Shown here: positions 17,755-53,772 of the stretch, piece after piece
How the letters are laid out: every line of letters begins with the position of its first letter
How positions within the stretch are numbered: the first letter of the stretch is position 1
Source of the DNA: Sphingomonas sp.
Lineage (GTDB): Bacteria; Pseudomonadota; Alphaproteobacteria; Sphingomonadales; Sphingomonadaceae
Reading direction: 5' to 3'
Length of the DNA: 53,772 nucleotides
Assembly (NCBI GenBank): GCA_019747165.1
Contig: JAIERC010000220.1
Location: 1-53,772, forward strand
Program-made: the position numbers and the translations under genes
The notes under the pieces: generated by a model
Database searches by the model: none
The model's input: only the letters and a program-made list of their open reading frames with translations
What the model was told of the DNA's origin: nothing

Positions 17755-18513
17755 CTTTCAGATGTGGATTCGTTGGGCGCAAAGAACATTATTGCAATAA
17801 AGATTCGTCGAGAGTCGCGGCCGCGGACTACGTTTGGCAAGCGGCGGAACAAGGTTAGCTTTCCATATTTGCCTGCCTCCCGATCGACAACGTGGTTCAT
17901 CTTGACACTTCGGCAGCGTTAAATCTTCGATGCTGATCTCGACGTTTTTCAAGGCGACTTCGATATACCAGAGCAAGGTGTTCAACATGGTCAATTTGTA
18001 CCGAGCGTGCGTTGTCCGGTGCATTAACCATCCCCAGCTGAAGCGCAGCCGCGCCAAATCGACCGTCTGGAACACTTGCCAATCTTGACAGCATTATCGT
18101 CGAGATCCACGGTGTAAAGCAGTGAAACGTTCACTGATTTAGCCTTGCGCGTTCGATGGACCTTCACTTTAGGGACCCCTATGTCCGCGGCGACGATTTT
18201 TCGCGATAGAGCTGTCGGACCAATGTAGCAGTCAGCGGCCGGTGCTGATAGCTAGGTGAATGGCGGTTCAACTTCATGAAATTGGCCCTATGGTCACTCA
18301 CCGCCGAACGACTGGATCAACGCACGACGGTCTAACCCAGATTGCCGGCACAATCGGGCGGAGATCAAGCGACTATGCCACTGACACCGGGGTGCTACCA
18401 CTCGCAAATTGTGTTGACTTGCCGCAAGGGGGTATCGAGAAATACCTCACGTTCAGGATCCGAGGCGGGGTGACCTTCTCGCTCGAACCAATCGTTCAAA
18501 AGGGAGCGTAGAA

Positions 18514-29339: not shown

Positions 29340-29375
29340 TCTTGTCCTTTCGCGTCCCGAAGAATATCGACGCCA

Positions 29376-29559
29376 TGCGACAGGTTTCCAGAAATGGAAA
29401 TAATAGGGAACCCGGAAAGCCGATAATTTATCTGCAAGCCGGGGCTGTGCCCGCAACTGTGACCGGAGAGCGGTCGCTCCATATGCCACTGGCGGCCTTG
29501 GCTGCTGGGAAGGCGGAGCGGACGTGATGACCCGGGAGCCAGGAGACCTGCCTGTCGCA
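29376..29559 (+). promoter_or_regulatory. Cobalamin riboswitch
   Basis: P1 TGCGACAGG / CCTGTCGCA, AATAGGGAA, GCCCGCAACTGT, GCCACTG, GGGAAGG, B12 box GAGCCAGGAGACCTGCC; upstream of btuB. Confidence 0.95.
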
Positions 29560-29719
29560 GTCGGTCCTTTGTGCCAACGGGGTGTTTGGCATGATCGGGG
29601 GGAAACCTCGCGTGACGACATCGTTGGAGGTGGCGCGCGTGAGGGTTCGGACCGTTTCGCTCTACAAAAGTCCGTGCCGTTGGCGCGTGCAACCTCGCTT
29701 TGTTCAACAAGGAGGTTCC

Positions 29720-40558: not shown

Positions 40559-41194
40559 GGTGTTGTCAGTCTACAGTGAACTCGTCTCCGTGAGCTGCAC
40601 CCTGTTTGTGGTCCCGTGTCCGACCTCCGGCTTCTGGGTATTGCAGAGCATCTTCATCGCCGCTTTGTACGATGCTGGGCCATCGCTGACGATCGTCTCA
40701 GGAGAGCCGTTGCGCTTCAGCGCCTTCTTCATGAAGCGCAAAGCTGCCTCCTTGTCGCGGGTCTTGGTGATGTAGCTTTCGAGGATCTCGCCGTCCTGAT
40801 CAACCGCGCGCCAGAGATCGACCCATGCGCCATTCAGGTTGGCTTCGCCGCCCTTCGGGTCACGTACATCTCGTCCAGGTGCCATCGCCAATGGCGAAAC
40901 CCGCGCATCCGACTGATTCTTGGCCGCTGAATGTCGCCAGCGAACATTGGCCCAAACCGGTTCCACCACATCCGCACGGTCTCATGACACAGGTCGATGC
41001 CGCGCTCGAAAAGCAGATCCTTGACGTTCCGCAGCGATAGCGGGAACCGCACATGCATCAGCACCACAAGCCGGATCACCTCCGGCGACGAGTTGAAACA
41101 GCGAAAAGGGGAGGGAGGTCTGGCTCTGGATTTCCGGCTCATTAGCGCCCGCTAGCAGTCCCGTCGCTGACTGCCACATTGGTTTGACAGCGCC
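40559..41194 (-). mobile_element. IS6-family element, internally deleted and frameshifted
   Basis: IRs GGTGTTGTCAG / TTGACAGCGCC; RFPLSLRNV, WHLDEMYV, LWRAVD, IVSDG. Confidence 0.88.
40841..40860 (-). repeat. 20-bp double mini-hairpin insert, copy A
   Basis: GGCTTCGCCGCCCTTCGGGT between DEMYV and NLNG codons of the IS6 transposase. Confidence 0.9.
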
Positions 41195-41389
41195 CGGGCG
41201 GCTAGTCACATCGCGCAATCACAGTTTGGAAGAGACGTGCATCTCAGCTGCGCCTAACGAAGACTCCGCTTCTACATCCCTGGCACGGCACGCTTGCGCG
41301 GCGAGAAATGCCAATGCCTAATAGGAAAACGGTCGGTTGCTTGCTTTCATAGTACCGTTTGCCATTTGCGCAGCTAACTGATCCTCAGG

Positions 41390-42709
41390 ATGGGCGATAA
41401 TCAGGATATTGCTGCGCCACCGTCGCTGCGTCAGGATCTCGATGGCCCGGTGGATGCCGGGTTCGTTTATGCCAATCTCCGGCGCAACACAGTCGCTAAC
41501 TTTGCCCATGGCATGCTGGGGATGACCGGATTTCGGCTGATTGCGGCGCCAACCTTCGTGCCCAGCTACATCTTCATGCTGACGGGGTCGAGCTTTGCGG
41601 TCGGACTGGCGCAGGCCGTCCAGCAGGCGGGTTCGGTGATCTCGCCGATGCGCAGCGCCAGCGCGATCGAGGACAAGCTCCTCATCATGCCCTATGCCCG
41701 CCGTACCGGGATCGCGATGCGGATGCCGCTGGCGGTAATCGCGCTGACCGGTTGGTTCCTAGGCGGCCATTCGTCGATGAACTGGCTGCTGGCGGCAATC
41801 ACCATCGCTGCCTTATTTGTTTTTGGCTATTTCTCCGGCGCGCAACGGGTTGCGTTCCAAATGTTGATGGCCAAGGTGATCCCTTTGAAATTGCGCGGCC
41901 GGTTGCAAGGCTGGCGCAATTTCTGTGGCGGTGCCATCGCCGCTCTTTTGAGCTGGTGGGCCGGATCCACGCTGATTGAGCACAATGTTCTCGGTAACGG
42001 GTACGCCACGACATTTGCGATCAGTTTCGTGCTGACCAGCCTGGGCCTGACGATTCTGGTGCTGATGCTTCGCGAACCTGAAAGCCGGTTGCGCCGGCCA
42101 ACAATGTTGCTGCGCCACCGGCTACGCGAATTGCCCAAGCTCCTCGAAAACAGAGACTACCAGGAATTTCTGCGTGCTCAGCTGGTGGCGATGATTGGGC
42201 GCACGGCGATCGCCTTTTGCATCCTTTATGCAGGTGGCAGGATGCACCTGACGGGAGCGACATTGGGGTTTCTTAGTTTTGCGTTCCTCGGTGCCGACAC
42301 GGTGTCAAACGTGGCCTGGGGAGCAATTGGTGACCGTCGCGGGTTCCGGATCGTGCTGCTATTGGCGCTCTCGCTGTGGGTCGTTGGCTATGCGATGATA
42401 TTGGCGGCAACCAGCCTTGCAGGGTTCATCGCCGCATTTGCGGCCCTTGGCGCGGCCATCAGCGGGTACACGATCGCCGCACAGACGTTGGTGCTTGAGT
42501 TCGGACGGCATGAGGACATCCCGATGCGGCTGGCGCTTTCGGCCACGGTTGAAACCAGTGTCGCCTCGATTGGCCCGCTCATCGGTGGGGCAGTTGCCGC
42601 GCTGATCGGCTTTCGTCCGCTGATCGAATTTTCGATGGCGGTAATGGTGATGGCGGTAATCATCGTCTGGTGGCGCGTGGGCGAACCCCGTCAGTTCCCA
42701 GCAAAATAG
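41390..42709 (+). CDS. MFS transporter
   Basis: Multiple hydrophobic helices, WGAIGDRRGFR loop motif. Confidence 0.85.
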   Translation: MGDNQDIAAPPSLRQDLDGPVDAGFVYANLRRNTVANFAHGMLGMTGFRLIAAPTFVPSYIFMLTGSSFAVGLAQAVQQAGSVISPMRSASAIEDKLLIMPYARRTGIAMRMPLAVIALTGWFLGGHSSMNWLLAAITIAALFVFGYFSGAQRVAFQMLMAKVIPLKLRGRLQGWRNFCGGAIAALLSWWAGSTLIEHNVLGNGYATTFAISFVLTSLGLTILVLMLREPESRLRRPTMLLRHRLRELPKLLENRDYQEFLRAQLVAMIGRTAIAFCILYAGGRMHLTGATLGFLSFAFLGADTVSNVAWGAIGDRRGFRIVLLLALSLWVVGYAMILAATSLAGFIAAFAALGAAISGYTIAAQTLVLEFGRHEDIPMRLALSATVETSVASIGPLIGGAVAALIGFRPLIEFSMAVMVMAVIIVWWRVGEPRQFPAK

Positions 42710-42951
42710 CCAGAATTGGCTCGCTTTTCAGCTGATTTCTGGTTTCGAAATTCAGATTTTTGGACGATCCGACTGTGGATTGGTGTTCAACGTGAAACGC
42801 TATCAATGTCTTCCTAGACATTGATAGAGAAGGATTTTTACTGGCATCCAATCGTAAAATGGGCGCCGCTTGGGACCCGGCACGCCAAAACTGATTGCGA
42901 AAGGCGCATGCTGGCGTCGACTAAGCCTGATCTTCGTTATTTCTCGCCAGA

Positions 42952-45774
42952 TTATTGTGTTCCGGCGTTTGTCAGTGTGCTGCTTAGCATCTCTTCACGG
43001 CCCTGACGCAAATCAGCCCCGCTGCGGGTGCGCGGCTCCGGTCCGGTGCCCAGCCCGCGCCACAAGGCCGAGTTGAACGCTGCGGTGTCCAGCGTGTCTT
43101 CGGTACGAAAATTCTGGCCCTTCATCGCCGCCGCCCAATAAGCGGCGGTATGTGGTGGGCGGATCGCGGCGACTTTGGGGACAACGAATCGGTCAGCGGT
43201 GATCGGGAGTTGCGTGCTGCGCAGCACCTCTGCGGCGACCGCGCGGTAATCCCAGCTTGTCTGATTGAGGTCGAAGATATCGGCCATTGGCGCGGCCATG
43301 GCGTCATTCAGCCCCAGGGGTTCGATCCCCAGCACCCCCTCGATTGTGCGCAACATGCTGACCGTTGTGTACCGGGTCGATACCAAAGCGCGTTGGCGGA
43401 CATAGGGTCCGACGACAAAGGCAATGCTGCGACGGGCATCGACATGGTCGGTGCCGTTTTGGGCATCATCCTCAATCACAAAGACCAAGGTTGAATCCTT
43501 GAACTTGCTCTGTGCGATCCGCTCAACGACCATGCCGACCGAATAATCATTGTCGGCCATCTGCGTTTCGACGGTGTTCACGCCGTCAACGCCCTCGGCA
43601 AAATCGCCGAAATGGTCGTGTGACAGGCGCAGCAAAGTCAATGCGGGCATCGCATCTGCAGCTTCCTGCTGTGCAAATTCGCGCTCCCATTCGAGAACGC
43701 GCCAGTAATCGGGCAGTTTTTGGTCAAAACCCCGGAAATAGGGGTCGCTGCGATCGGCAAGCGCGATCGATGCCGGGGTGTAGATTCGCCTACCTTCCTT
43801 GAAGGGATCGCGGATCACCGGCACGGCGCCAGGGTCCTTGCTGTCATAAACCGACGCATCGGCAAAGCCATAGTTGCGCACGCTGAGGCCAGCACGCAGC
43901 GCCGCGTCCCACAAGAAACCCTGACCGGGTTCATTGTCGCTGTCGCCATCGGGAGCGGTCAGCAAGGCGTGGCCAGGCAGAATATCATCGTCATCGGGGA
44001 TCGCGGGATTTGCCATTCGCCGAGCTTCTTTGCTCAGGCTGGTCGCCACATTGCGATCGAGCTGTTCGGCCTCATAGGCAAGGCCGCGCTGCGCATAATT
44101 TACCGGGGCGGTCTTTTCTAACAGGTCGGGCACCCGCCCCGCCGTCGTCCAGGTCCATCCGGTGCTCGATTGCTCCCCGCTGTCATAGAAATTGTCGAGC
44201 GTCACGAAATTTGTCGCCAGCGCGTGATGGTTGGGTGCCAGTGCTGCGCCCAATATGGCCAGTTTGGGATCACCATTGCCGACAGGCAAGTCACCCAGCA
44301 CCTGATCATAAGTGCGGTTTTCCTTGACGATAAAAATGACGTGTTTGATGCGCTCGCGCACCGCGGCCATCGTTGCATCCGCAGCAGCGCGTGCTGCATC
44401 ATTGTCGAGACCGATATTCTTTGCCACTTGTCGCGTGGTGCTGGCCAACGCCGCCGTGCCCGGCATCGGGAAGTGCAGCAGCCCGGCCTTTTCCAACTGG
44501 AAGATATATTGGTTTGCCGCCCCGCAAGCGGTGGGCTGCGCCTTTACAACGGCCAGTTTGGGCGCACAGCCAAGCGGATTGGGACCGGGCACGCTTTTGC
44601 GGTTAACAACAAAAACCCGGCTGCCATCGGCACTTGTCGCGACTGCAGACGGATACCAGCCGGTTGGCACCAACCCATCAACGCGCGCACCCTTTGCCAT
44701 GGGCGTCACCATCGCAACGGCATTCACGCCGCCATAGGTGACAAGCAGCCGATGATTGGGGGTCATCGCCAAGCCGTTGGGGTTCAGCCCCTTGGGCAAC
44801 GTGCCCGCATCAATGGCATCGGGCAGGCCCAGGCGCGGTTCAGCGATCAGCCGGTCGGTCACGGTGTTGATCATCGCCAGCCGGTCAGCATTGTCCTCGG
44901 TGGCATAAAGACGCTTTGATACGGGATCGATCAGCAGCGCCGTCGGCTCACCGATCGTGGCGATACGGTGGACGACGGCCATCCGGTCCGCGCCCACGCT
45001 CAGCTTCACAATTTGGCGGTCGCGCGGGGCTGAAACATAAGCGCTGTTTGCCCCTGCCCAAATGACCGCAAAGGGAAACTCACCGCCCGCAACGCCTTTC
45101 GCCGCGGGATCGATCTTGCCTGGGCGCAAATCCTGTTCGGCGATCACCCGTTTGCCGTCGAGATCAACCAGGCTGATTGAGTCGTTATAATAATTTGCAA
45201 CCAGGGCGCGGTGGCCATCCGGGCTGACCGCGACCCCGGCCGCTTGCGGCTTTACATCGGCGCCATTGCCCGCCTTGTGACCCAGCTTGATCGCAGGTGT
45301 GCTCTCCGTAAAGCCCGCCGCGCCGCGGGCGAAAACATGGACGTTATCGTCCACCCCGCCACCGACGATGAATCCTTGGCCGTTGGGTGTCCAGGCAATG
45401 CCCGAATAGCTGTTGGGTATCATCAGCGTTTGATCGAGCGTGCTGCCCTTCGCGTCGATGCGGTAAACGAAAATATATTGTTGCGATTGAAGCAGGCTGA
45501 TCGTGCCCTTGGCATCATTGACGCGGTTGAAGCCGCTGGTGAGCACCAACATGCGCGTTTTGTCTGGGCTGACCGCGATTGCGGCGGCGCCGTCTGCAAC
45601 ATAATCGGGGATTGGTCCGGCATGCGCGACGAGCGGCTCAAAATGTGCGCCAGGTGCAGCGAGCGGGGTCAATGCCTGACCGGTCGGCAGGTGCTGGGGC
45701 GCGTCGGAAGCGGCGGCCGCGCTGGTGCCAAGCAGGCTGAACGCCGATGCGCCGATGAAGATGGCGATTTTCAC
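42952..45774 (-). CDS. Secreted YncE/YVTN beta-propeller + phosphoesterase (alkaline phosphatase superfamily) protein
   Basis: Signal peptide VKIAIF..AAAA; propeller repeats VAVSPDG, VPTGWYP; IKHVIFIVKENRTYDQVLGD, EDDAQNGTDHVDARRS. Confidence 0.87.
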   Translation of the reverse strand: MKIAIFIGASAFSLLGTSAAAASDAPQHLPTGQALTPLAAPGAHFEPLVAHAGPIPDYVADGAAAIAVSPDKTRMLVLTSGFNRVNDAKGTISLLQSQQYIFVYRIDAKGSTLDQTLMIPNSYSGIAWTPNGQGFIVGGGVDDNVHVFARGAAGFTESTPAIKLGHKAGNGADVKPQAAGVAVSPDGHRALVANYYNDSISLVDLDGKRVIAEQDLRPGKIDPAAKGVAGGEFPFAVIWAGANSAYVSAPRDRQIVKLSVGADRMAVVHRIATIGEPTALLIDPVSKRLYATEDNADRLAMINTVTDRLIAEPRLGLPDAIDAGTLPKGLNPNGLAMTPNHRLLVTYGGVNAVAMVTPMAKGARVDGLVPTGWYPSAVATSADGSRVFVVNRKSVPGPNPLGCAPKLAVVKAQPTACGAANQYIFQLEKAGLLHFPMPGTAALASTTRQVAKNIGLDNDAARAAADATMAAVRERIKHVIFIVKENRTYDQVLGDLPVGNGDPKLAILGAALAPNHHALATNFVTLDNFYDSGEQSSTGWTWTTAGRVPDLLEKTAPVNYAQRGLAYEAEQLDRNVATSLSKEARRMANPAIPDDDDILPGHALLTAPDGDSDNEPGQGFLWDAALRAGLSVRNYGFADASVYDSKDPGAVPVIRDPFKEGRRIYTPASIALADRSDPYFRGFDQKLPDYWRVLEWEREFAQQEAADAMPALTLLRLSHDHFGDFAEGVDGVNTVETQMADNDYSVGMVVERIAQSKFKDSTLVFVIEDDAQNGTDHVDARRSIAFVVGPYVRQRALVSTRYTTVSMLRTIEGVLGIEPLGLNDAMAAPMADIFDLNQTSWDYRAVAAEVLRSTQLPITADRFVVPKVAAIRPPHTAAYWAAAMKGQNFRTEDTLDTAAFNSALWRGLGTGPEPRTRSGADLRQGREEMLSSTLTNAGTQ

Positions 45775-46230
45775 TGCAACGGCTCCCCAGACTTTTGAGC
45801 AACAGGACTTATCACTGCGACGATGTCGATTACATGACAAAAGATCGCGCCGCCCAGCAGGGCATCTTCCTGCACCCCAAAGATCGGGGCATTTGCGCTG
45901 CCCGTGCACTTGGCTGCGTCCCAAGAAAAGCAGCATCGTGACCGGTTGGGGGGCGCCGTATGGCCACATTTCCCCATCGCTTTGATCGTCCGGAATGGCG
46001 TTACGCAAACCAAGGGCCCTTACCTCGCGGACATCGCCCTCGCCCTCGCGGTGAACACCATCGTGGCGCGAAGGATTGCATTGCGCTTTGGCTGTTCCCC
46101 CCGATCGTCGCTCACTCAATGCTGTCCATCTTTTCTCGGTTCACTGTCCGTTGAAAAGAAGTTGCTCTGCGACCGGCGTGGTTTCAGGCAAATAGCAATA
46201 TGCCCAGACCGGCTGGGATTGCGAAGACTA

Positions 46231-49200
46231 TTAGGGGAACCCCACAACTCGCGTCGGCGCGCCCTGATAGCGGGTGCCGGCGTTCAAGGCCTCGGCCTTC
46301 ATGATCACGCTTCCCGCGCCGACATGGGCATCCTTGCCGACCACCGCTCCGTATAGCGGCACCGTGCCCGCGCAAACCGTCGAGCCGGCCTCAAATTTTA
46401 CCGGGCCGACCTTCAGGACGCGGTCTTCGAATGTGTGGGCTTGGTAGCTGGCGCAGGCGGTGGCGTGGTCGCCTACTTCGATCATGTCGGGATCGACGAC
46501 CTGGCTGAATTGCGGGCCTAGCACCGCGCGTTTGCCGATCTTGAGGCCCATCAGGCGCAAATATGGAGGCAGGAGGAACGTGCCCTCGAGCCAGTCGAGT
46601 GGGACGCGGGCGAGCTTTTGCCAGCACACATAGAAATAGTCCCAGCGGCTACACCAGCACGACCACAGCGCGTGCTGCGCGGGTTTGACGCGGCCAATCA
46701 GGCACCATTTGATCACGATGACAGAGAGCGCGGAGAGCATGATTGGGGTGAGCGTGGCGAGGGGGAGGACGACGAGGGCGAACGTTACGCTGCTGGTTGT
46801 TGCCTCGCCGCGCGCGATCAGGCCGTACCACAGTGTACCGAGCAGCAGCGGCGGGATCGGCAGCAGAAAGCGCGCGGTCTCCCACATCACGCGGTTCACA
46901 TAGCGGAGCGTCGAGGGCTTGTGTGTCAGGCTGATGTCGCTCGCCATTTCGACCACTTCGCGGCGGGGGAGGTCGAAGCTGGGGTGACCGAAGCGGGCAT
47001 GGCCGCTGGTGATTTTCGTGTCATCGGCCACGGTACAGACGCCAATCAGGATGTCGTCGGGCAGGTGCGATCCGGCGGGGATGACCGCATGGTTCCCGAG
47101 GAAGGTGTGGCGGCCGAGACTGGTCTGGGCGAGCGTAACCGTGCCTTGCCGGACCTTTGCGCCGCCGAGGTAGATGCCGTCGGCGAAGAAGGTTTCTTCG
47201 CCGATCGTGACCAGTTCGGGCACCACGTCGATGATCGTGCTGATTTCGCAATCGCGGCCCAGATCCATGCCCGCCAGTCGCAACCAGTGCGGCCAGTAGA
47301 GCGTGCCCGAAAGCCATTGACCACTGGCGGTGAGCATCGCGCTCTTCATCCAGACGCGCAAGTACGCGCTACTCCAGCGGGGGATTGTACCGGGGCGGAC
47401 GCGCCCCAAAGCGCGCATCATCAGCGCCGAGGCGACTAACGTAAGCGGGGTGGTAAGGACGGTGACACCCAGGATCACCGCCGCCACGCGGGAGGCGAAA
47501 TCGGGCGCGTAGAACCAACGCCACAGCATGTTGGGGGCAATATCCGCCGCGTGCGCGGCGCCGATCAGTATCGCCTCGGTGGGGAGAGCGACCACAAGCG
47601 CAAGCAGGGCTTCAGCGCCGAGCAGCCGCGCGCCATAGCCGAACGGGGTGAGCGTGGCGGCCGGTCGGGTGATCGCGGGGAGCGGCGGAACGGGGCCGAT
47701 CGAACGCGCGGGCACGCCGTCCCAAACTTCGCCCGCCGACACGTGCATCCCTGGGTTGAGTGCCGAAAGCGCGGTGACCACGCTGCCCGCGCCTATGGTC
47801 ACATCGCCGCAGACGATGGCGCGTGATTCAAGGCTCGCTCGGGCCTCCAGCGTGATCGGCCCGACCACGATATCGCCGCGATCGAGTTCGACGAGGCTCA
47901 ACACGCAATCCTGCGCTATCGCCACATCATCGCCTAATGTCAGCAAGTCCCACCCACCGCGGCGCAAATCCACGCCGCGGTGGATGTGAACGCGGTCACC
48001 GATCTGCGCGCCGAGCGCGCGCAGGGCCACGATCTGCAAGGCGCTGCCCTGGATCAGCGGCCATGGCACCACCCGCGCGGCGAGCAGGACGAGCCAGTGA
48101 CGCAAGTAATATGCGCTCCACACCGGCGCACGGATCGGGCGGTAGGTACCGATCACCAGCCGCTTGACTGCGACCGCGAACAGGATTGATCCGGGAATAT
48201 AGGCGGCCAACGCCAGCGCGGTGATGATCGGGAACAGCACGATCATCTCGCTAAGGCTGAAGCGCGCGAACAGCGCCGGGATCAGCTTGAATGCGGCGAG
48301 GTAACCACCCCACGAAGCGACAGTAACCACCGCCCAAAGCGCGGGTAATTGCACGCAGTTGGCGAGCAGCACATTGGCCTTGCCGTGGCGGACCAGCGGG
48401 GCTTCATCCTCGTCCTCGCTGGTGCCGCCGCCCGCTGCGATTAGTTCGGCTAATGCGCGGATCGTGCGTGCTTCGTAGATGTCGCTAACGGTGACGCGCA
48501 CGGTTTCGGGGTGATCGCGCAACAGCGTGACCAGCATCGCCGCACGCAAGGAATCGCCGCCGAGGCCCTCGAAAAAATCCTCCACCACCGAGGGCGGGGC
48601 GGCGCGCGCCAGAACATCGGCGGCGGCATCAGCGATCAAGGTCTCGAGAGCGCCCTCAGGGGCGACGGCCTCGCCGGTCTCGGGTTCCGTGCCGATGTTG
48701 AGCACGGGCAGCAGTCGGCGGTCGAGCTTGCCCGCCACGCTCACCGGCAGCGCGTCGATCAGCCCGATCCGCTGCGGCACCATGTAATGCGGCAGCGTCT
48801 CGGTCAGCGTGGCGCGCAAACCTTCGGTGTCGGGCGGCGAGGCGGGATCGCTCGGCACGACATGCGCGACCAGTGCGGCGCCGCCCGGGCGATCTTGCAT
48901 CGTCACCGCTGCCGCGCGCACCCCAGGCAGGGCAGCCAGCCGCGCCTCAATCTCGCCCAGTTCAACCCGGTAGCCGCGGATCTTGACCTGTGCGTCGATG
49001 CGACCGTGGTAGTGTAATTCGCCGCTGACGGGATCCAGGTGCACCAAATCGCCGGTGCGGTAAACGCGACCATAGCGCGGGTGATCAACGAACTTTTCGG
49101 CGGTTAGTTCGGGCCGGTTGCGGTAGCCGCGCGCCAGACCGACGCCCGCCATGCACAATTCGCCGTGGGTCCCGCTCGGCACTTCAGCCAGCGCATCATC

Positions 49201-50241
49201 GAGCACCAGCGCGGTCATGCCCGGCACCGCCCGCCCGATCGTAACCGGTGCGTCCGGCGTCACGTCGCCGCGCACGCAGGTCACTGCGCATTCGGTTGGG
49301 CCGTAACCGTTGACCATGCGCTTTGCCTTCGACCATGTCGCTGCGACGTCGTCGGGCAGTGCCTCTCCGCCAACGTAAAGCAGCCTGAGATCGGGCAGTT
49401 CGCGCTGTGGGTCCGTGCACCCGGTGGCGCGCAGCAACGTCGGCGGCGGAGTCAGCGCAGTCGCGCGTTCGCTGCGCAGCCAGCCGACCAGATCGGGGCC
49501 AAGCCGGGCCGTGGCATCGTCCATCGCCAGCAGCGTCGCACCGCTGGCCAGTGCCATCCAAATCTCCTCGACCGAGCTGTCGTAAGCGGGCGAGGAACCC
49601 TGCACCACGCGGTCGCCCGGGCCGAGGCCGAAAAACCGCGTATCGCCCGCAACCAGATTGGCGATCGCGCGATGCTCGATCATCACGCCCTTTGGCTTGC
49701 CGGTCGTACCCGAAGTATAGATCACATAAGCTAGGCTGTCGGGCCGGATGTCGGCCGGGCAGGGCGCGCGGTCAGGGCTTTTGGCGAAGACCGCGATATC
49801 GTGGACCAGTCCTTCCGATAGGCCGATCAAACGCAATTGCGCAGCACCTTCAGCATCGCTGAGCACCAGCGGGCTGGCGGCATCTTCGATCACCTCGCGC
49901 TTGCGCGCGTCGGGGAAGGCCGGATCGAGGCAGGTATAAGCCGCACCCGAGCGTTGCACCGCCAGTTGCGCGATCCACAGCCACACCGTCCCGCGCGACA
50001 GCAGCAGCGCCACGATTGGCTCGTCGAGCCCCGCGATCCGCGCAGCGATCCGCTCGGCCAACGCCTGCACGCGCGCGTCGAGCTCGGCGTAAGTCAACGT
50101 CTGCCGATCGGGCCGCCCACGCCCCGGCGGCACGTCGATCGCCAACGCGTGCGGATGCCGCGCCACGCTGGCAGCGAGGACTTGCGGCAGCAGCGGGTGC
50201 GCGGCTTCGCGGGCCTCCTGGTCGAGGGCAATGGTGGCCAT
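46231..50241 (-). CDS. Pls/PosA-like single-module membrane NRPS (A-T plus three TM/hexapeptide-repeat terminal domains)
   Basis: YVIYTSGTTGKPKG, NGYGPTE, YRTGDL, GRIDAQVKIRGYRVELGEIE; T domain DFFEGLGGDSL; three blocks with W.R..G..IG motifs and TM pairs; no C or TE domain. Confidence 0.9.
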   Translation of the reverse strand: MATIALDQEAREAAHPLLPQVLAASVARHPHALAIDVPPGRGRPDRQTLTYAELDARVQALAERIAARIAGLDEPIVALLLSRGTVWLWIAQLAVQRSGAAYTCLDPAFPDARKREVIEDAASPLVLSDAEGAAQLRLIGLSEGLVHDIAVFAKSPDRAPCPADIRPDSLAYVIYTSGTTGKPKGVMIEHRAIANLVAGDTRFFGLGPGDRVVQGSSPAYDSSVEEIWMALASGATLLAMDDATARLGPDLVGWLRSERATALTPPPTLLRATGCTDPQRELPDLRLLYVGGEALPDDVAATWSKAKRMVNGYGPTECAVTCVRGDVTPDAPVTIGRAVPGMTALVLDDALAEVPSGTHGELCMAGVGLARGYRNRPELTAEKFVDHPRYGRVYRTGDLVHLDPVSGELHYHGRIDAQVKIRGYRVELGEIEARLAALPGVRAAAVTMQDRPGGAALVAHVVPSDPASPPDTEGLRATLTETLPHYMVPQRIGLIDALPVSVAGKLDRRLLPVLNIGTEPETGEAVAPEGALETLIADAAADVLARAAPPSVVEDFFEGLGGDSLRAAMLVTLLRDHPETVRVTVSDIYEARTIRALAELIAAGGGTSEDEDEAPLVRHGKANVLLANCVQLPALWAVVTVASWGGYLAAFKLIPALFARFSLSEMIVLFPIITALALAAYIPGSILFAVAVKRLVIGTYRPIRAPVWSAYYLRHWLVLLAARVVPWPLIQGSALQIVALRALGAQIGDRVHIHRGVDLRRGGWDLLTLGDDVAIAQDCVLSLVELDRGDIVVGPITLEARASLESRAIVCGDVTIGAGSVVTALSALNPGMHVSAGEVWDGVPARSIGPVPPLPAITRPAATLTPFGYGARLLGAEALLALVVALPTEAILIGAAHAADIAPNMLWRWFYAPDFASRVAAVILGVTVLTTPLTLVASALMMRALGRVRPGTIPRWSSAYLRVWMKSAMLTASGQWLSGTLYWPHWLRLAGMDLGRDCEISTIIDVVPELVTIGEETFFADGIYLGGAKVRQGTVTLAQTSLGRHTFLGNHAVIPAGSHLPDDILIGVCTVADDTKITSGHARFGHPSFDLPRREVVEMASDISLTHKPSTLRYVNRVMWETARFLLPIPPLLLGTLWYGLIARGEATTSSVTFALVVLPLATLTPIMLSALSVIVIKWCLIGRVKPAQHALWSCWCSRWDYFYVCWQKLARVPLDWLEGTFLLPPYLRLMGLKIGKRAVLGPQFSQVVDPDMIEVGDHATACASYQAHTFEDRVLKVGPVKFEAGSTVCAGTVPLYGAVVGKDAHVGAGSVIMKAEALNAGTRYQGAPTRVVGFP

Positions 50242-50358
50242 GCGGCAAAAGTCCAAGTTCATCGGCCGCCGCTCTGCCGCGCCCTGCCGATCCGATCATG
50301 CCCGTTGTCATAGCGCTGCCACTCGCCCGGTCAATCACGGGCATGATCCCGCGCGCTT

Positions 50359-50790
50359 GGTGCTGTCAGTGCGATGCAAACCCGTCTCAACACGATGCAG
50401 ATCGGGCTTTGAGGGCGACGTTCAGCTGGCAAGCGACTGCCACTCGGTCAGTGCGGCTGAGCGGCGCTTCTTGAAGGTTTGGCGATCGACGATGTGGCCT
50501 TTAAAACTGGCCTGAAGGGCGGCGAAGCCAATTAATTATAGACATTAGAGTGCCAGCGCTAATTTCGAAAACCCCGCATCCCGCCGATACAGCGTTACAG
50601 TCCCTCGCTCTCGACCGTCGGGCCAACGCGATTCTACCGGAAGCTTATGGTCTGATGGCTCAAATCGATTCCGCGCTCGAACAGCAAATCCTTGATGTTT
50701 CGCACCGACAGCGGAAATCGCACGTTCATCATGCCGACCAGCCGGATGACTTCGAGTGGCGAGCCGAAGCACTGGAAAAGGCCAGTGCGC
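50359..50790 (-). mobile_element. IS6-family remnant, heavily degraded with central deletion
   Basis: IR GGTGCTGTCAG at 50359; 50359-50545 parallels 52738-52925; 50546-50790 parallels the IS6 5' part. Confidence 0.8.
50510..50529 (+). repeat. 20-bp double mini-hairpin insert, copy B (2 substitutions)
   Basis: GCCTGAAGGGCGGCGAAGCC at the same transposase site as copy C. Confidence 0.8.
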
Positions 50791-50791
50791 C

Positions 50792-52663
50792 TCAATAAGC
50801 CAATGCACAGCCGTCAGCACGCATCTCGCTCGCCGCTGCATAGACCCTTGTATCGCCGTCCATCCGGCGCTCGACGCATTCGTAGCGACCGAACCCACCG
50901 TCCGGCTCGCCGATCGTCCAACCAAGCTCTGCTAAGCGCTGCTGCGTGGCAAGCGGCACCCCTGATTCTAATCGCAGTAACCCGCGCGGACCAAGGCCCG
51001 ACGCATCCTCCCCCATCGACTGGGACGATCCCTCGTGATGCCAGCGCGGTGAATCACCCGCCGACTGGATTTCCAGGCCGTAATCGACACGGTTCGCAAT
51101 AATCTGCGTTTGGCCTTGAGGCTGCATGTCGCCGCCCATCACGCCAAAGCTCATCCACGGATCGACGCCACGTGTCGCAAAGCCCGGGATAATCGTTTGG
51201 AACGGTCGCTTGCCGGGGGCGTAGATATTGGGATGCCCGTCCTGGAGACTGAAAAGCTGCCCGCGATCCTGAAACATGAAGCCCAAGCCGTCTGCGACAA
51301 GACCTGATCCCATACCACGAAAGTTCGACTGGATCATCGACACCATCATGCCATCCTTGTCGGCGCAACTGAAATATGTGGTGTCGCCATGGCTTGGGGC
51401 TTGCCCAGGATAGACTGGGTCGAGGATGCGGTCGAGCCGGATCAATTTCGCACGCTCTTTCGCATAGTCTTTAGAAATCAGCCATTCGACCGGCACCTTG
51501 CTGAAATGCGGGTCGGCGTAAAAGCGCGCACGATCCTCATACGCAAGTCGCTTTGCCTCTGCCTGAAGATGGATCGACAAAGGGGATTGGAAACCTGCGC
51601 CGCCGAGATCGAACGTCTCCAATATGTTGAGCATTTGGAGCGTCGCAATCCCTTGCGTATTCGCGCCGAGCGCCAGAACATCCACGCCCCGATAGTTTGT
51701 TTTGTGCGGCTCGATCCATTCTGATCGATGTGCCGCCAAATCCTCGGCCCGCAGCCAGCCGCCGATCCGCTTGAAGTATCGATCGATCACCTGCGCAATG
51801 TCGCCCCGGTAGAACGCATCGCACCCGCCCGCCGCGATCGCTCGATAGGTGCGGGCTAAATCAGGATTGCGGAATACCTGCCCTGCCGCAGGGCCTTTGC
51901 CGTCCGAGAGGCCGTAGGTCTTGAGCGCGTTGGTGGTTTCCTCGATGCCGCTGCCCGGCTTGCGGAACGCGGCCATGCTTTGTCGGATATAATGGGCTAT
52001 GATGTCGGGCACTGGCGCACCAGCTTCGGCATGGGCAATCGCGGGCGCGAACAATTCAGCCCATGGCAGTCGACCGTGTCGTTTGTGCATGGTCCACCAT
52101 GCATCGACCGCGCCGGGCACGGACACCGCCACGGCACCGAGAGGCGGCAATGCGCCGCCGCGCGCACGGGAACGGACTATGTCTAGGCTGAGGCCCATCG
52201 GCGACGCGCCTGACCCGGCCAATCCCTCGACCTTGCGCTGCTTTGGGTCCCAGATCATCGCATAGGCATCACCGCCAATGCCGCATGCTGTCGGTTCCAG
52301 AAAACCCAGACAGGCGTTGATGGCGATCGCTGCATCCACTGCGGACCCGCCACGGCGAAGGATGTCGATCCCTGCCTGTGTCGCTAGGGGATGCGCAGTA
52401 CCCGCTGCCCCGTTCAATCCATATGCGGCCGTTCGGGACGCGAAGCTGGCGCCAACTGGTCGGTTGCCGGCGCTGACGTCGGGTCGGAGAAAACGGTCTT
52501 CGCCGGTGGTCCAGCGATGAGGCAGCCCGGAAACGCCGGTCGGGGAGGCTGCAGCCGCCCCTGGACCCTGCAGTTGAGGGCCGGTCTGAGGAGATTGTGC
52601 CAACGACATTCCGGGTATGAGCGCCGCACCCGGCAGCGTGGCAAGAAATGTACGACGATGCAT
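50792..52663 (-). CDS. ggt: Gamma-glutamyltransferase-family Ntn hydrolase with Tat signal
   Basis: MHRRTFL Tat motif; GGSAVDAAIA, GIGGD, VSVPGAV, nucleophile GDTTYF, PGKRPFQTI, GVMGGDMQPQG. Confidence 0.9.
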   Translation of the reverse strand: MHRRTFLATLPGAALIPGMSLAQSPQTGPQLQGPGAAAASPTGVSGLPHRWTTGEDRFLRPDVSAGNRPVGASFASRTAAYGLNGAAGTAHPLATQAGIDILRRGGSAVDAAIAINACLGFLEPTACGIGGDAYAMIWDPKQRKVEGLAGSGASPMGLSLDIVRSRARGGALPPLGAVAVSVPGAVDAWWTMHKRHGRLPWAELFAPAIAHAEAGAPVPDIIAHYIRQSMAAFRKPGSGIEETTNALKTYGLSDGKGPAAGQVFRNPDLARTYRAIAAGGCDAFYRGDIAQVIDRYFKRIGGWLRAEDLAAHRSEWIEPHKTNYRGVDVLALGANTQGIATLQMLNILETFDLGGAGFQSPLSIHLQAEAKRLAYEDRARFYADPHFSKVPVEWLISKDYAKERAKLIRLDRILDPVYPGQAPSHGDTTYFSCADKDGMMVSMIQSNFRGMGSGLVADGLGFMFQDRGQLFSLQDGHPNIYAPGKRPFQTIIPGFATRGVDPWMSFGVMGGDMQPQGQTQIIANRVDYGLEIQSAGDSPRWHHEGSSQSMGEDASGLGPRGLLRLESGVPLATQQRLAELGWTIGEPDGGFGRYECVERRMDGDTRVYAAASEMRADGCALAY

Positions 52664-52888
52664 GATGGAGGCCCCCGCTGCAGCAAAGCGATCTTTGCGC
52701 TCCGCGCCCGCTTCCGCAAGAGGGTACAAGGATGATCGGTGCTGTCAGTCTTGTGCGAACTCGTCTCTCGACGATGCAGATCGGGCTTTGAGGGCGACGT
52801 TCGGCTGGCGAACGACTGCTACTCGGCCAGTGCGGTTGAGCGGCGTTGCCTGAAGGTTTGGCGATCGACGATGTGGCGTTCAAGATTG

Positions 52889-52908
52889 ACCCGAAGGGCG
52901 GCGAAGCC
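52889..52908 (+). repeat. 20-bp double mini-hairpin insert, copy C
   Basis: ACCCGAAGGGCGGCGAAGCC splits the Phe codon of HNQ-F-NLERH, antisense to the transposase. Confidence 0.9.
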
Positions 52909-53261
52909 AACTGATTATGGACGGTGGCGTGGACCGAGGCGAACTTTTGCAGCGTCTTCATTCGCCTGAACCGGAGCATCGCGCGCTCGCTTCGTCGGAA
53001 GGGAAGGTGACTGTTCTCGACCCGATTGTTCGCCCATCGGCCAATCTCGTGACGATCCAGATTCCCCAATTCGCGCATGGCGGCGGGGTAGGATTTTAGC
53101 CCGTCAGTGACGATCGTTTCAGCCTGCCCATAGCGCTTCAGCGCCTTCTTCATGAAGGCGAGTGCCGCTGATTTATCCCGCTTTTTCGTGACGTAGCTCT
53201 CGAGGATTTCGCCTTCGTGATCGACGGCCCGCCAGAGGTAAACCATCTCCCCATTCAGGTT

Positions 53262-53281
53262 GGCTTCGCCGCCCTTCGGGT
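53262..53281 (-). repeat. 20-bp double mini-hairpin insert, copy D
   Basis: Identical to copy A, same site (DEMCV^NLNGE). Confidence 0.9.
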
Positions 53282-53697
53282 CACGCACATCTCGTCCAGG
53301 TGCCAACGTCGATGACGAGACCCGCGCATCCGACTGATCCGTTGCCGCCTGATGTCGCAAGCGAACATTGGCCCAAACTGATTCCACCACATCCGAACGG
53401 TTTCATGACACAGGTCGATCCCGCGCTCGAATAGCATGTCCGCGACATTTCGCAGCGACAGCGGGAAGCGCACATACATCATCACCACCAGCCGGATCAC
53501 TTCGGGCACGAGATGAAACAGCGAAAAGGCGAGGGAGGCTTAGCTCTCGATTTGCGGCTCATTCGCGTCCGCTATCAGCACCGCCAGCCGACTGCCACAT
53601 TGGTCTGACAGCGCCTTTGCAGCGTCAGGTTTTTTGGGGAGCGATTATGGGAACAATCCCCAAGGAAGTAATTTTATCTAATAAAATCAATGGCAGA

Positions 53698-53772
53698 TGG
53701 CGGAGCGGGAGGGATTCGAACCCTCGATACGCTTTTGACGTATACTCACTTTCCAGGCGAGCGCCTTCGACC
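53698..53772 (-). tRNA. tRNA-Ser(GGA), 5' end cut by window edge
   Basis: Reverse strand: CTCGC-CTGGAAA-GTGAG anticodon arm, long variable arm ATACG..CGTAT, GAGGG-TTCGAAT-CCCTC, CCA. Confidence 0.95.

Follow-up and report, generated by a model that had tools for sequence, protein, structure and literature searches.

Recurrent insertion of a 20-base double hairpin, resembling cyanobacterial small dispersed repeats, into transposase genes and palindromic repeats of alphaproteobacteria

Small dispersed repeats (SDR1–8) of the Nostocaceae were reportedly described by Elhai et al. in 2008. SDR4–6 form double stem-loops, show compensatory changes and can be nested. In the passages of the literature that treat them, SDRs are small, apparently mobile units of about 20 bases, lodged in other repeats, and no enzyme is named (PMC5861425, PMC4390886, PMC2884548, PMC3116915). 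SDR5 inserts precisely between bases 3 and 4 of HIP1, according to the relevant part of PMC4390886. Here, we analyse a 20-base insert found in a 53,772-base stretch of Sphingomonas sp. DNA (hereafter, the window). The window is contig C521 of a fragmented metagenome-assembled genome (MAG; G000) of 2.68 Mb that is 72% complete. Likened by description to SDRs, the insert is also about 20 bases long, dispersed, placed precisely in a short motif and lodged in other repeats. For both, filled and empty alleles show insertion into other repeats or mobile DNA. On balance, we regard the insert as likely to be a very small mobile element of the SDR type, probably moved as single-stranded DNA (ssDNA) by an enzyme encoded elsewhere. 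A preliminary description of the window had proposed such a minimal unit, and the recurrent insertion and GNA-loop hairpins reported below support it.

That description placed four copies of the 20-mer in the window, and all were confirmed. Exact copies occur at 40841–40860 (minus strand), 52889–52908 (plus strand) and 53262–53281 (minus strand). A copy with two mismatches is at 50510–50529 (plus strand). By chance, 0.02 matches are expected. All four copies are inside three remnants of IS6-family insertion sequences (ISs) on the minus strand (40559–41194, 50359 to about 50781 and 52738–53615). No further copy with up to two mismatches occurs elsewhere in the 2.68-Mb genome. The sites and their hosts are as follows.

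40559–41194, minus strand: IS6-family copy with both ends kept, an internal 3′ deletion and site 1 filled.
40838–40861, minus strand: filled IS6 site 1, which reads GA, CCC-GAA-GGG, C, GGC-GAA-GCC and AAC (20 added bases plus an overwritten C at 40838).
50359–50781, minus strand: decayed IS6-family remnant with site 2 filled; the left boundary is approximate.
50509–50532, plus strand: site 2, filled and decayed, of an IS6 copy that has itself decayed; the 20-mer has two changes and ends in AAT.
52738–53615, minus strand: IS6-family copy of full length that retains both terminal inverted repeats and holds two inserts; it also has a frameshift near the 5′ end and a late stop.
52888–52911, plus strand: filled IS6 site 2, antisense, within the HNHFN motif close to the C-terminus.
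53259–53282, minus strand: filled IS6 site 1, sense to the transposase and three codons past WHLDE; empty relatives part from the window at 53259.

Alleles in other public runs were checked in assembled contigs. A contig of run X1 (record 5) spans site 1 at 53196–53393, and a contig of run X4 (record 16) spans site 2 at 52855–53202, both free of gaps. Hence, the sequence on which the preliminary description relied is borne out for both inserts of the third IS6 copy, and an assembly artefact is ruled out.

Empty IS6 alleles exist, as the preliminary description had presumed: 30 at site 1, from related genomes, and 29 at site 2. They contradict the target it had proposed, TG^AAC. At site 1, AAC is found in 0/30 empty alleles and in 20/21 filled alleles. 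The empty alleles all carry AAG, AAA or CGG, with GTG-AAG in 21. At site 2, CAG occurs in 0/29 empty and 6/6 filled alleles. Six contigs of run X8 agree with the window as far as 53258; from there they give the empty allele, CTTCAC, in place of the window's GTT. Excising 20 nucleotides from filled IS6 does restore the frame, as had been noticed, yet a K to N (site 1) or H to Q (site 2) change is left behind. The insertion is therefore not clean.

Across all hosts, an empty homolog identical at 18 or more of 21 flank bases was available for 88 filled sites. Where the best empty homolog reads GAAG (n = 68), the filled product is AAC or TAC in 61 cases and AAG in three. Where it reads GAAA (n = 7), the product is AAA in four cases and AAC in three. 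Counted once per site cluster, the ratio of C gained to base kept is 20:2 for GAAG and 3:4 for GAAA (Fisher p = 0.018). An orthologous repetitive extragenic palindrome (REP) of two Sphingobium strains has GAAA in one and GA, 19 bases and AAC in the other, the latter representing a sibling insert. We conclude that 20 bases are added after GA in YGA^A(G/A), that base +4 is usually overwritten by C and that the target is not duplicated. The lack of duplication had been stated before and is upheld by the comparison of filled and empty alleles. Past Y at −1 and codon bias, there was no flank consensus around the target. Both an integron G^TT crossover and IS91-type insertion were ruled out because the target word is split and altered. 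A two-base staggered exchange of a 20-nucleotide circle was also set aside; single ACC (right) and ACCG (left) variants are too few to support it.

Insertion at these sites has happened repeatedly. An IS6 tree of 49 rows, 16 of them filled, was made with the insert left out. On this tree, the filled state needs ten label changes, at least four of which are forced by strong branches. Among the matches listed, the distinct filled sites number 185 and group into 75 site clusters. Hence, insertion recurs independently, including at the same IS6 nucleotide. IS6 insertions fall on two positions only (20 and 8 sites), and 11 of the 16 filled rows are otherwise free of stops over 199 codons.

Filled ISs are not necessarily dead. 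The complete genome G287 has four filled IS3 copies that are 100% identical (L393, L395, L397, L399), each frameshifted by the insert. Their closest other copy is 84% identical, and no intact near-identical IS3 copy was found in this genome. Thus, a filled IS is still able to spread. Single ISs have been hit repeatedly (L145, L240, L164, L253 and the window). Two inserts in one IS can remove the intervening stretch (L390, L110), and two micro-inserts can pile up in tandem at one site (L245, L255). In IS6 copies filled at site 2 (L270, L065, L082, L247, L269), the codons upstream of the insert differ by 197 synonymous and 124 non-synonymous changes, and those downstream, read in the old frame, by 41 and 68 (pairwise counts, not independent). 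Judged by its codons, this lineage may have remained active, now with a new C-terminus.

The IS6 copies of the window have other features. A lone match of 42 bases to the left end of IS6 is found at 18211–18252. Between 50359 and 53615, two copies in direct orientation bracket a gene labelled by eye as gamma-glutamyltransferase-like. In runs X1 and X2, a 2,365-base contig links 52922 back to 52400, possibly reflecting a circular unit of IS6 plus gene or an assembly collapse.

The preliminary description had seen the insert only inside IS6 genes and suggested an IS6-specific parasite. Confinement to IS6 holds in the window genome. Elsewhere it does not, and specificity for IS6 is contradicted: the 75 clusters lie in several IS families, REPs and host genes. 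ISs of at least seven families hold 44 of the 75 clusters (114/185 sites). Pfam typing covered 50 of the 75 clusters. In 34 of the 44, the frame abutting the insert matches a transposase, an integrase core or a transposase-type helix-turn-helix in Pfam; six have such a match nearby in the locus, and four were typed by eye. IS3 leads with 28 clusters, and IS6, IS5, IS256, IS66, IS110 and IS630/IS481-like elements also occur (family names below Pfam level were given by eye). REP-like palindromes, typed by eye, hold 28 clusters (68 sites). When these hosts were folded, z was below −2.5 in only 10/27, and a few may be ordinary spacers. Host genes hold three clusters, with insertions seen at 3′ ends only: two are in the last codons of Ppx/GppA and GNAT genes, and the third, in frame, is probably a chance match.

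By crude gene calls, the window genome has 13,856 YGAAG sites (12,082 coding, 1,721 non-coding and 53 in ISs). Every one of its 78 REP sites of one host type lacks the insert. Ordinary intergenic hits are nearly missing, though survival alone predicts many, so some preference is likely. That the insert is nearly confined to IS and REP DNA probably reflects both survival and a genuine preference. Hitch-hiking on mobile hosts also swells the number of IS and REP sites sampled.

A one-mismatch scan matched 30 of 400 Sphingomonadaceae genomes; the reversed-pattern control gave four matches compared to 46. The GA..AA context was present in 20 of the 29 non-self loci shown, and the remainder were mostly chance coding matches. 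A further 400 genomes, drawn across the class, gave one match. Collection scans found at least 119 loci in GTDB contigs and at least 120 in metagenomes, and exact 19-mer matches in GTDB are partly chance coding matches. Among the matches listed, named carriers with full context are mainly Sphingomonadales and Caulobacterales, and copies are present in complete isolate genomes and chromids. Genomes carry 1–12 copies. Plasmid matches were restricted to four Sphingobium megaplasmid records. Two patterns gave 0 matches in the viral_contigs collection, and a phage collection gave partial chance matches only.

The same 19-base core was seen, without the GA..AAC context, at L149:301–319, where by eye the site resembles an integron attC, and at L140:301–319, amid cyanobacterial heptamer tandem repeats. 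The hairpin pair is reused in these other ssDNA structures. Separately, L392 and L403 differ by a second change in the same REP dimer, where an unrelated hairpin module of 28 bases takes the place of a 4-base loop.

The insert folds as two abutting GAA hairpins with stems of three base pairs, as first described. In DNA, GNA mini-hairpins have special stability, as published GNA-loop chemistry shows. Across 220 sites, 14 and 60 variants fall on the two loop-middle positions and at most two on any other, a count inflated by a search pattern that permitted N only at loop middles. In an unbiased scan, 8 of the 12 loci with one mismatch and the GA..AA context vary at the second loop middle. The same IS and REP loci also hold sibling inserts, whose stems are AAC/GTT, ACC/GGT, GCC/GGC, CGC/GCG and AGC/GCT. 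They comprise four stem-1 and three stem-2 variants with GNA loops throughout; all were found by requiring pairing except L285, which is at the same IS6 nucleotide (site 1). SDR4–6 likewise keep two small stem-loops by paired changes. It is invariably the strand reading GAAG that carries the GNA loops. With respect to the transposase frame, 17 clusters are sense and 17 antisense (34 Pfam-typed clusters). Together, GNA-only loop variation, paired sibling stems and even orientation point to ssDNA. In a REP host, the filled product adopts a three-way junction whose closing pair is the new G:C. Translational bypass, considered as a role, is ruled out by the even orientation to the host frame. There is also a longer sibling family (L006, L021, L042, L009), with a second stem of 4 bp and TAC or AAC ends, at GAAG sites of IS3/IS481-like elements; it also replaces target bases.

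These features can be accommodated as follows. One target strand would be opened after GA and about 22 bases, ending in AAC (or TAC), would be joined on. Two exonuclease-resistant GNA hairpins would fold the insert into a compact bulge, while the 3′ end displaces the target AG. At a GAAG target, a C:C mismatch would be left. Such mismatches are poorly seen by mismatch repair, and the C would be kept. At a GAAA target, the C:T mismatch would often be corrected back. Replication would then fix the product. In a REP stem, the outcome would be the neat three-way junction with its new G:C closing pair. We favour a transferred DNA strand over reverse transcription as the source.

Several points weigh against movement as ssDNA by the proposed route. 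Each empty IS6 locus (five loci) has 8–13 YGAAG sites and only two are used; the model is silent on why. IS targets share no stem, and their pairing is like that of control YGAAG sites (42 clusters and 219 controls). A pre-formed hairpin was thus not seen as selector in this comparison. The GAAG/GAAA contrast comprises 29 cluster-level cases, and the empty homologs are mostly 75–95% identical. The hairpins, initially described as exceptionally stable, are no more stable than shuffles with standard parameters (z ~0). The 3′ end of the proposed intermediate would be held weakly, by a single base pair and a mismatch. Neither an ssDNA nor a circular intermediate was seen in the contig data. In run X2, one contig shows AAC in an empty allele. 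This may be the scar of a precise 20-base loss or a natural variant, and it fits later precise loss of the 20 bases. Finally, the enzyme was not found among Y1, reverse transcriptase, IS110, Ssn/GIY-YIG and DUF559 candidates.

The preliminary description had pointed to HUH, IS110 and reverse transcriptase genes as possible partners. No consistent partner emerged among the carriers tested (4/11, 4/5 and 3/6, respectively). GIY-YIG matches were found in 5/5 carriers; the complete genome G383 has one long-frame match only and no small GIY-YIG gene. DUF559 is present in 5/5 carriers but also in 347/401 family genomes and, being near-universal, is uninformative. No copy of the element lies beside the scanned Y1, reverse transcriptase, IS110 or GIY-YIG genes, except for an IS66 copy adjoining IS110 (L454). 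Carriage of the insert need not imply carriage of the enzyme, so co-occurrence tests are weak. Elsewhere in the window genome (L336, contig C96), a 105-amino-acid GIY-YIG (Ssn-like) frame sits between inverted CGTC-type repeats.

Of the alternatives, an RNA intermediate survives best, though we consider it unlikely. Here, a small RNA would be reverse-transcribed onto the nick. Such target-primed synthesis yields the same 3′ flap with overwrite, and an RNA route has reportedly been suggested for SDRs. The RVT_1 domain is present in 3/5 carriers (3/6 in total). Conversely, none was found in the window genome or in complete G383, which has five filled IS6 sites. The reverse transcriptases that were found differ from each other and have no template-like copy of the element beside them. 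There is no bias for the transcribed strand (17:17), and GNA triloops are a DNA-specific motif, which counts against RNA.

Somewhat less probable still is that the insert is the footprint of a larger, perhaps IS110-like, element that inserted at GAAG and then lost its interior. Replacement of target bases is typical of staggered recombination. IS110-type elements practise safe-harbour targeting of REPs and other ISs, the same host range as the insert, and IS110 genes were found in 4/5 genomes tested, including the window genome. None was found in complete G383, and in one case the insert has targeted a non-coding end of IS110 (K27). No half-site exists outside the full copies in the window genome, where the first hairpin occurs only in the three exact copies. 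At IS6 site 1, 17 regions with BLAST breaks contained no long insert, only truncations, other insertions further on and plain empty alleles. Hence, the longer element with these ends that the preliminary description envisaged was not seen in these searches or among the matches listed, where a rare one is possible.

A host system that disables transposons, stamping a frameshift tag into transposase genes, is also doubtful. It would explain why 114/185 sites are in ISs, though these hold 53 of the 13,856 YGAAG sites in the window genome compared with 1,721 at other non-coding positions (crude gene calls). The otherwise stop-free reading of 11/16 filled IS6 rows and the ISs hit two or more times agree with it. 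However, 68/185 sites are in REP-like repeats, where there is nothing to disable, and filled ISs spread, as the four identical IS3 copies in G287 attest. With 20 of 29 non-self loci genuine in 400 family genomes, the insert is too rare for a general defence, and no guide source was found.

Very improbable is the clean insertion of a 20-nucleotide unit at TG^AAC, specific to IS6, by an HUH enzyme (IS200/IS605, REP-associated tyrosine transposase (RAYT) or IS91), as first suggested. The lack of duplication, the ssDNA-type hairpins and the one empty AAC allele are what it predicts. Against it stand the empty genome alleles (AAC 0/30, CAG 0/29), the many hosts other than IS6 and an overwritten target base unlike single cut-and-join. 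Y1_Tnp was not found in the window genome and was present in 1/5 and then 3/5 further carriers (4/11 in total). Three intact-looking Y1 genes have unrelated terminal repeats on their flanks, like subclass 2.1 as presented in the part of PMC6006769 consulted. Hence, there is no positive evidence for HUH involvement; an HUH enzyme with a flap step is possible. Assembly artefact or chance can be dismissed: the MAG is fragmented and some exact 19-mer GTDB matches are chance coding matches, but contigs from other runs bridge the inserts, copies exist in complete isolates and chromids, and the reversed control gave 4 matches versus 46.

The insert differs from SDRs in its hosts, which are alphaproteobacteria (mainly Sphingomonadales and Caulobacterales) rather than Nostocaceae. 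Hence, it is SDR-like and stands outside SDR1–8 proper. It also differs in its YGAAG target, target-base overwrite, preponderance in ISs, 1–12 copies per genome and a leaning to ssDNA rather than RNA. Miniature transposable elements with inverted repeats (MITEs) and IS110-family elements that target REPs are likewise non-autonomous or lodged within other mobile DNA and REPs. Unlike MITEs, the insert is without terminal inverted repeats or duplication, is five to ten times smaller, and had no autonomous partner in our searches. Many of its REP-like hosts are of the CGTC-tagged REP/Ssn motif type, and ssDNA hairpin biology, as set out in parts of PMC3733652 and PMC11893778, is common to both. 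The insert is a passenger in these motifs: it has no CGTC/TGTC tag and no 8–9-bp stem, and is not beside the GIY-YIG genes scanned. The Ssn GIY-YIG ssDNA nuclease cleaves next to a hairpin of its own and is tolerant of changes in the loop; the passages concerned do not describe a joining activity (PMC11893778). With REP/REPIN-RAYT and IS200/IS605 systems, as covered in part of PMC6006769, the insert shares a lack of duplication, a short target word and, as we infer for the insert, hairpin-dependent handling of ssDNA. Unlike REP/REPIN-RAYT, it has no GTAG tag and no repeat-flanked Y1 gene and is intragenic in ISs (114/185 sites). Unlike IS200/IS605, it splits GAAG and replaces the G rather than keeping an intact target 5′. 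The preliminary description did not recognise the insert as a described element. For the sequence this stands: exact 19–21-mers and a description of the element were not found in the literature searched, mostly outside subscription journals, and Rfam gave no match at gathering score. For the kind of element it does not, given the resemblance to cyanobacterial SDRs.

At gathering score, the Rfam scan of the window returned a cobalamin riboswitch and two tRNA fragments only. The riboswitch (29365–29569, 121 bits) is upstream of a TonB receptor and cobalamin salvage genes. The partial tRNA genes form the window ends (1–71 and 53701–53772) and are, by eye, two different serine tRNAs. The 54 kb that separate them include capsule-export, glycosyltransferase and IS genes and have the look of an island. 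A tRNA-Pro called by ARAGORN at 44726–44805, within a long open reading frame, has no Rfam support and is probably false. At 46231–50262 is encoded a 1343-amino-acid, single-module protein like a nonribosomal peptide synthetase, with membrane and repeat domains, which we presume to resemble poly-amino-acid synthetases.

The insert bears on how 20-base elements move, a question that dates from the cyanobacterial SDRs of 2008. It is likely among the smallest mobile DNA units. What is new is the defined target, the overwrite footprint, the strong transposase bias and the culturable hosts. The YGAAG target, the target-base-dependent change of G to C at +4 and the two IS6 hot-spot nucleotides are assets for testing a mechanism, and Sphingobium, Novosphingobium and Caulobacter isolates are among the named records. 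A bolder possibility, which we rate as improbable, is a flap-writing system. Its enzyme, favouring transposase genes and REPs, would nick YGA^AG and write a fixed 22-base double-hairpin strand, whose terminal C:C evades repair. Such a process would resemble prime editing, would frameshift transposons from many unrelated families and would be the engine behind SDR-like micro-elements in bacteria at large. Tool developers would also take an interest in an enzyme able to write one short, fixed oligonucleotide at a word of five bases. If the transposase bias is true targeting, it would amount to an undescribed erosion of many IS families by a selfish element or by the host.

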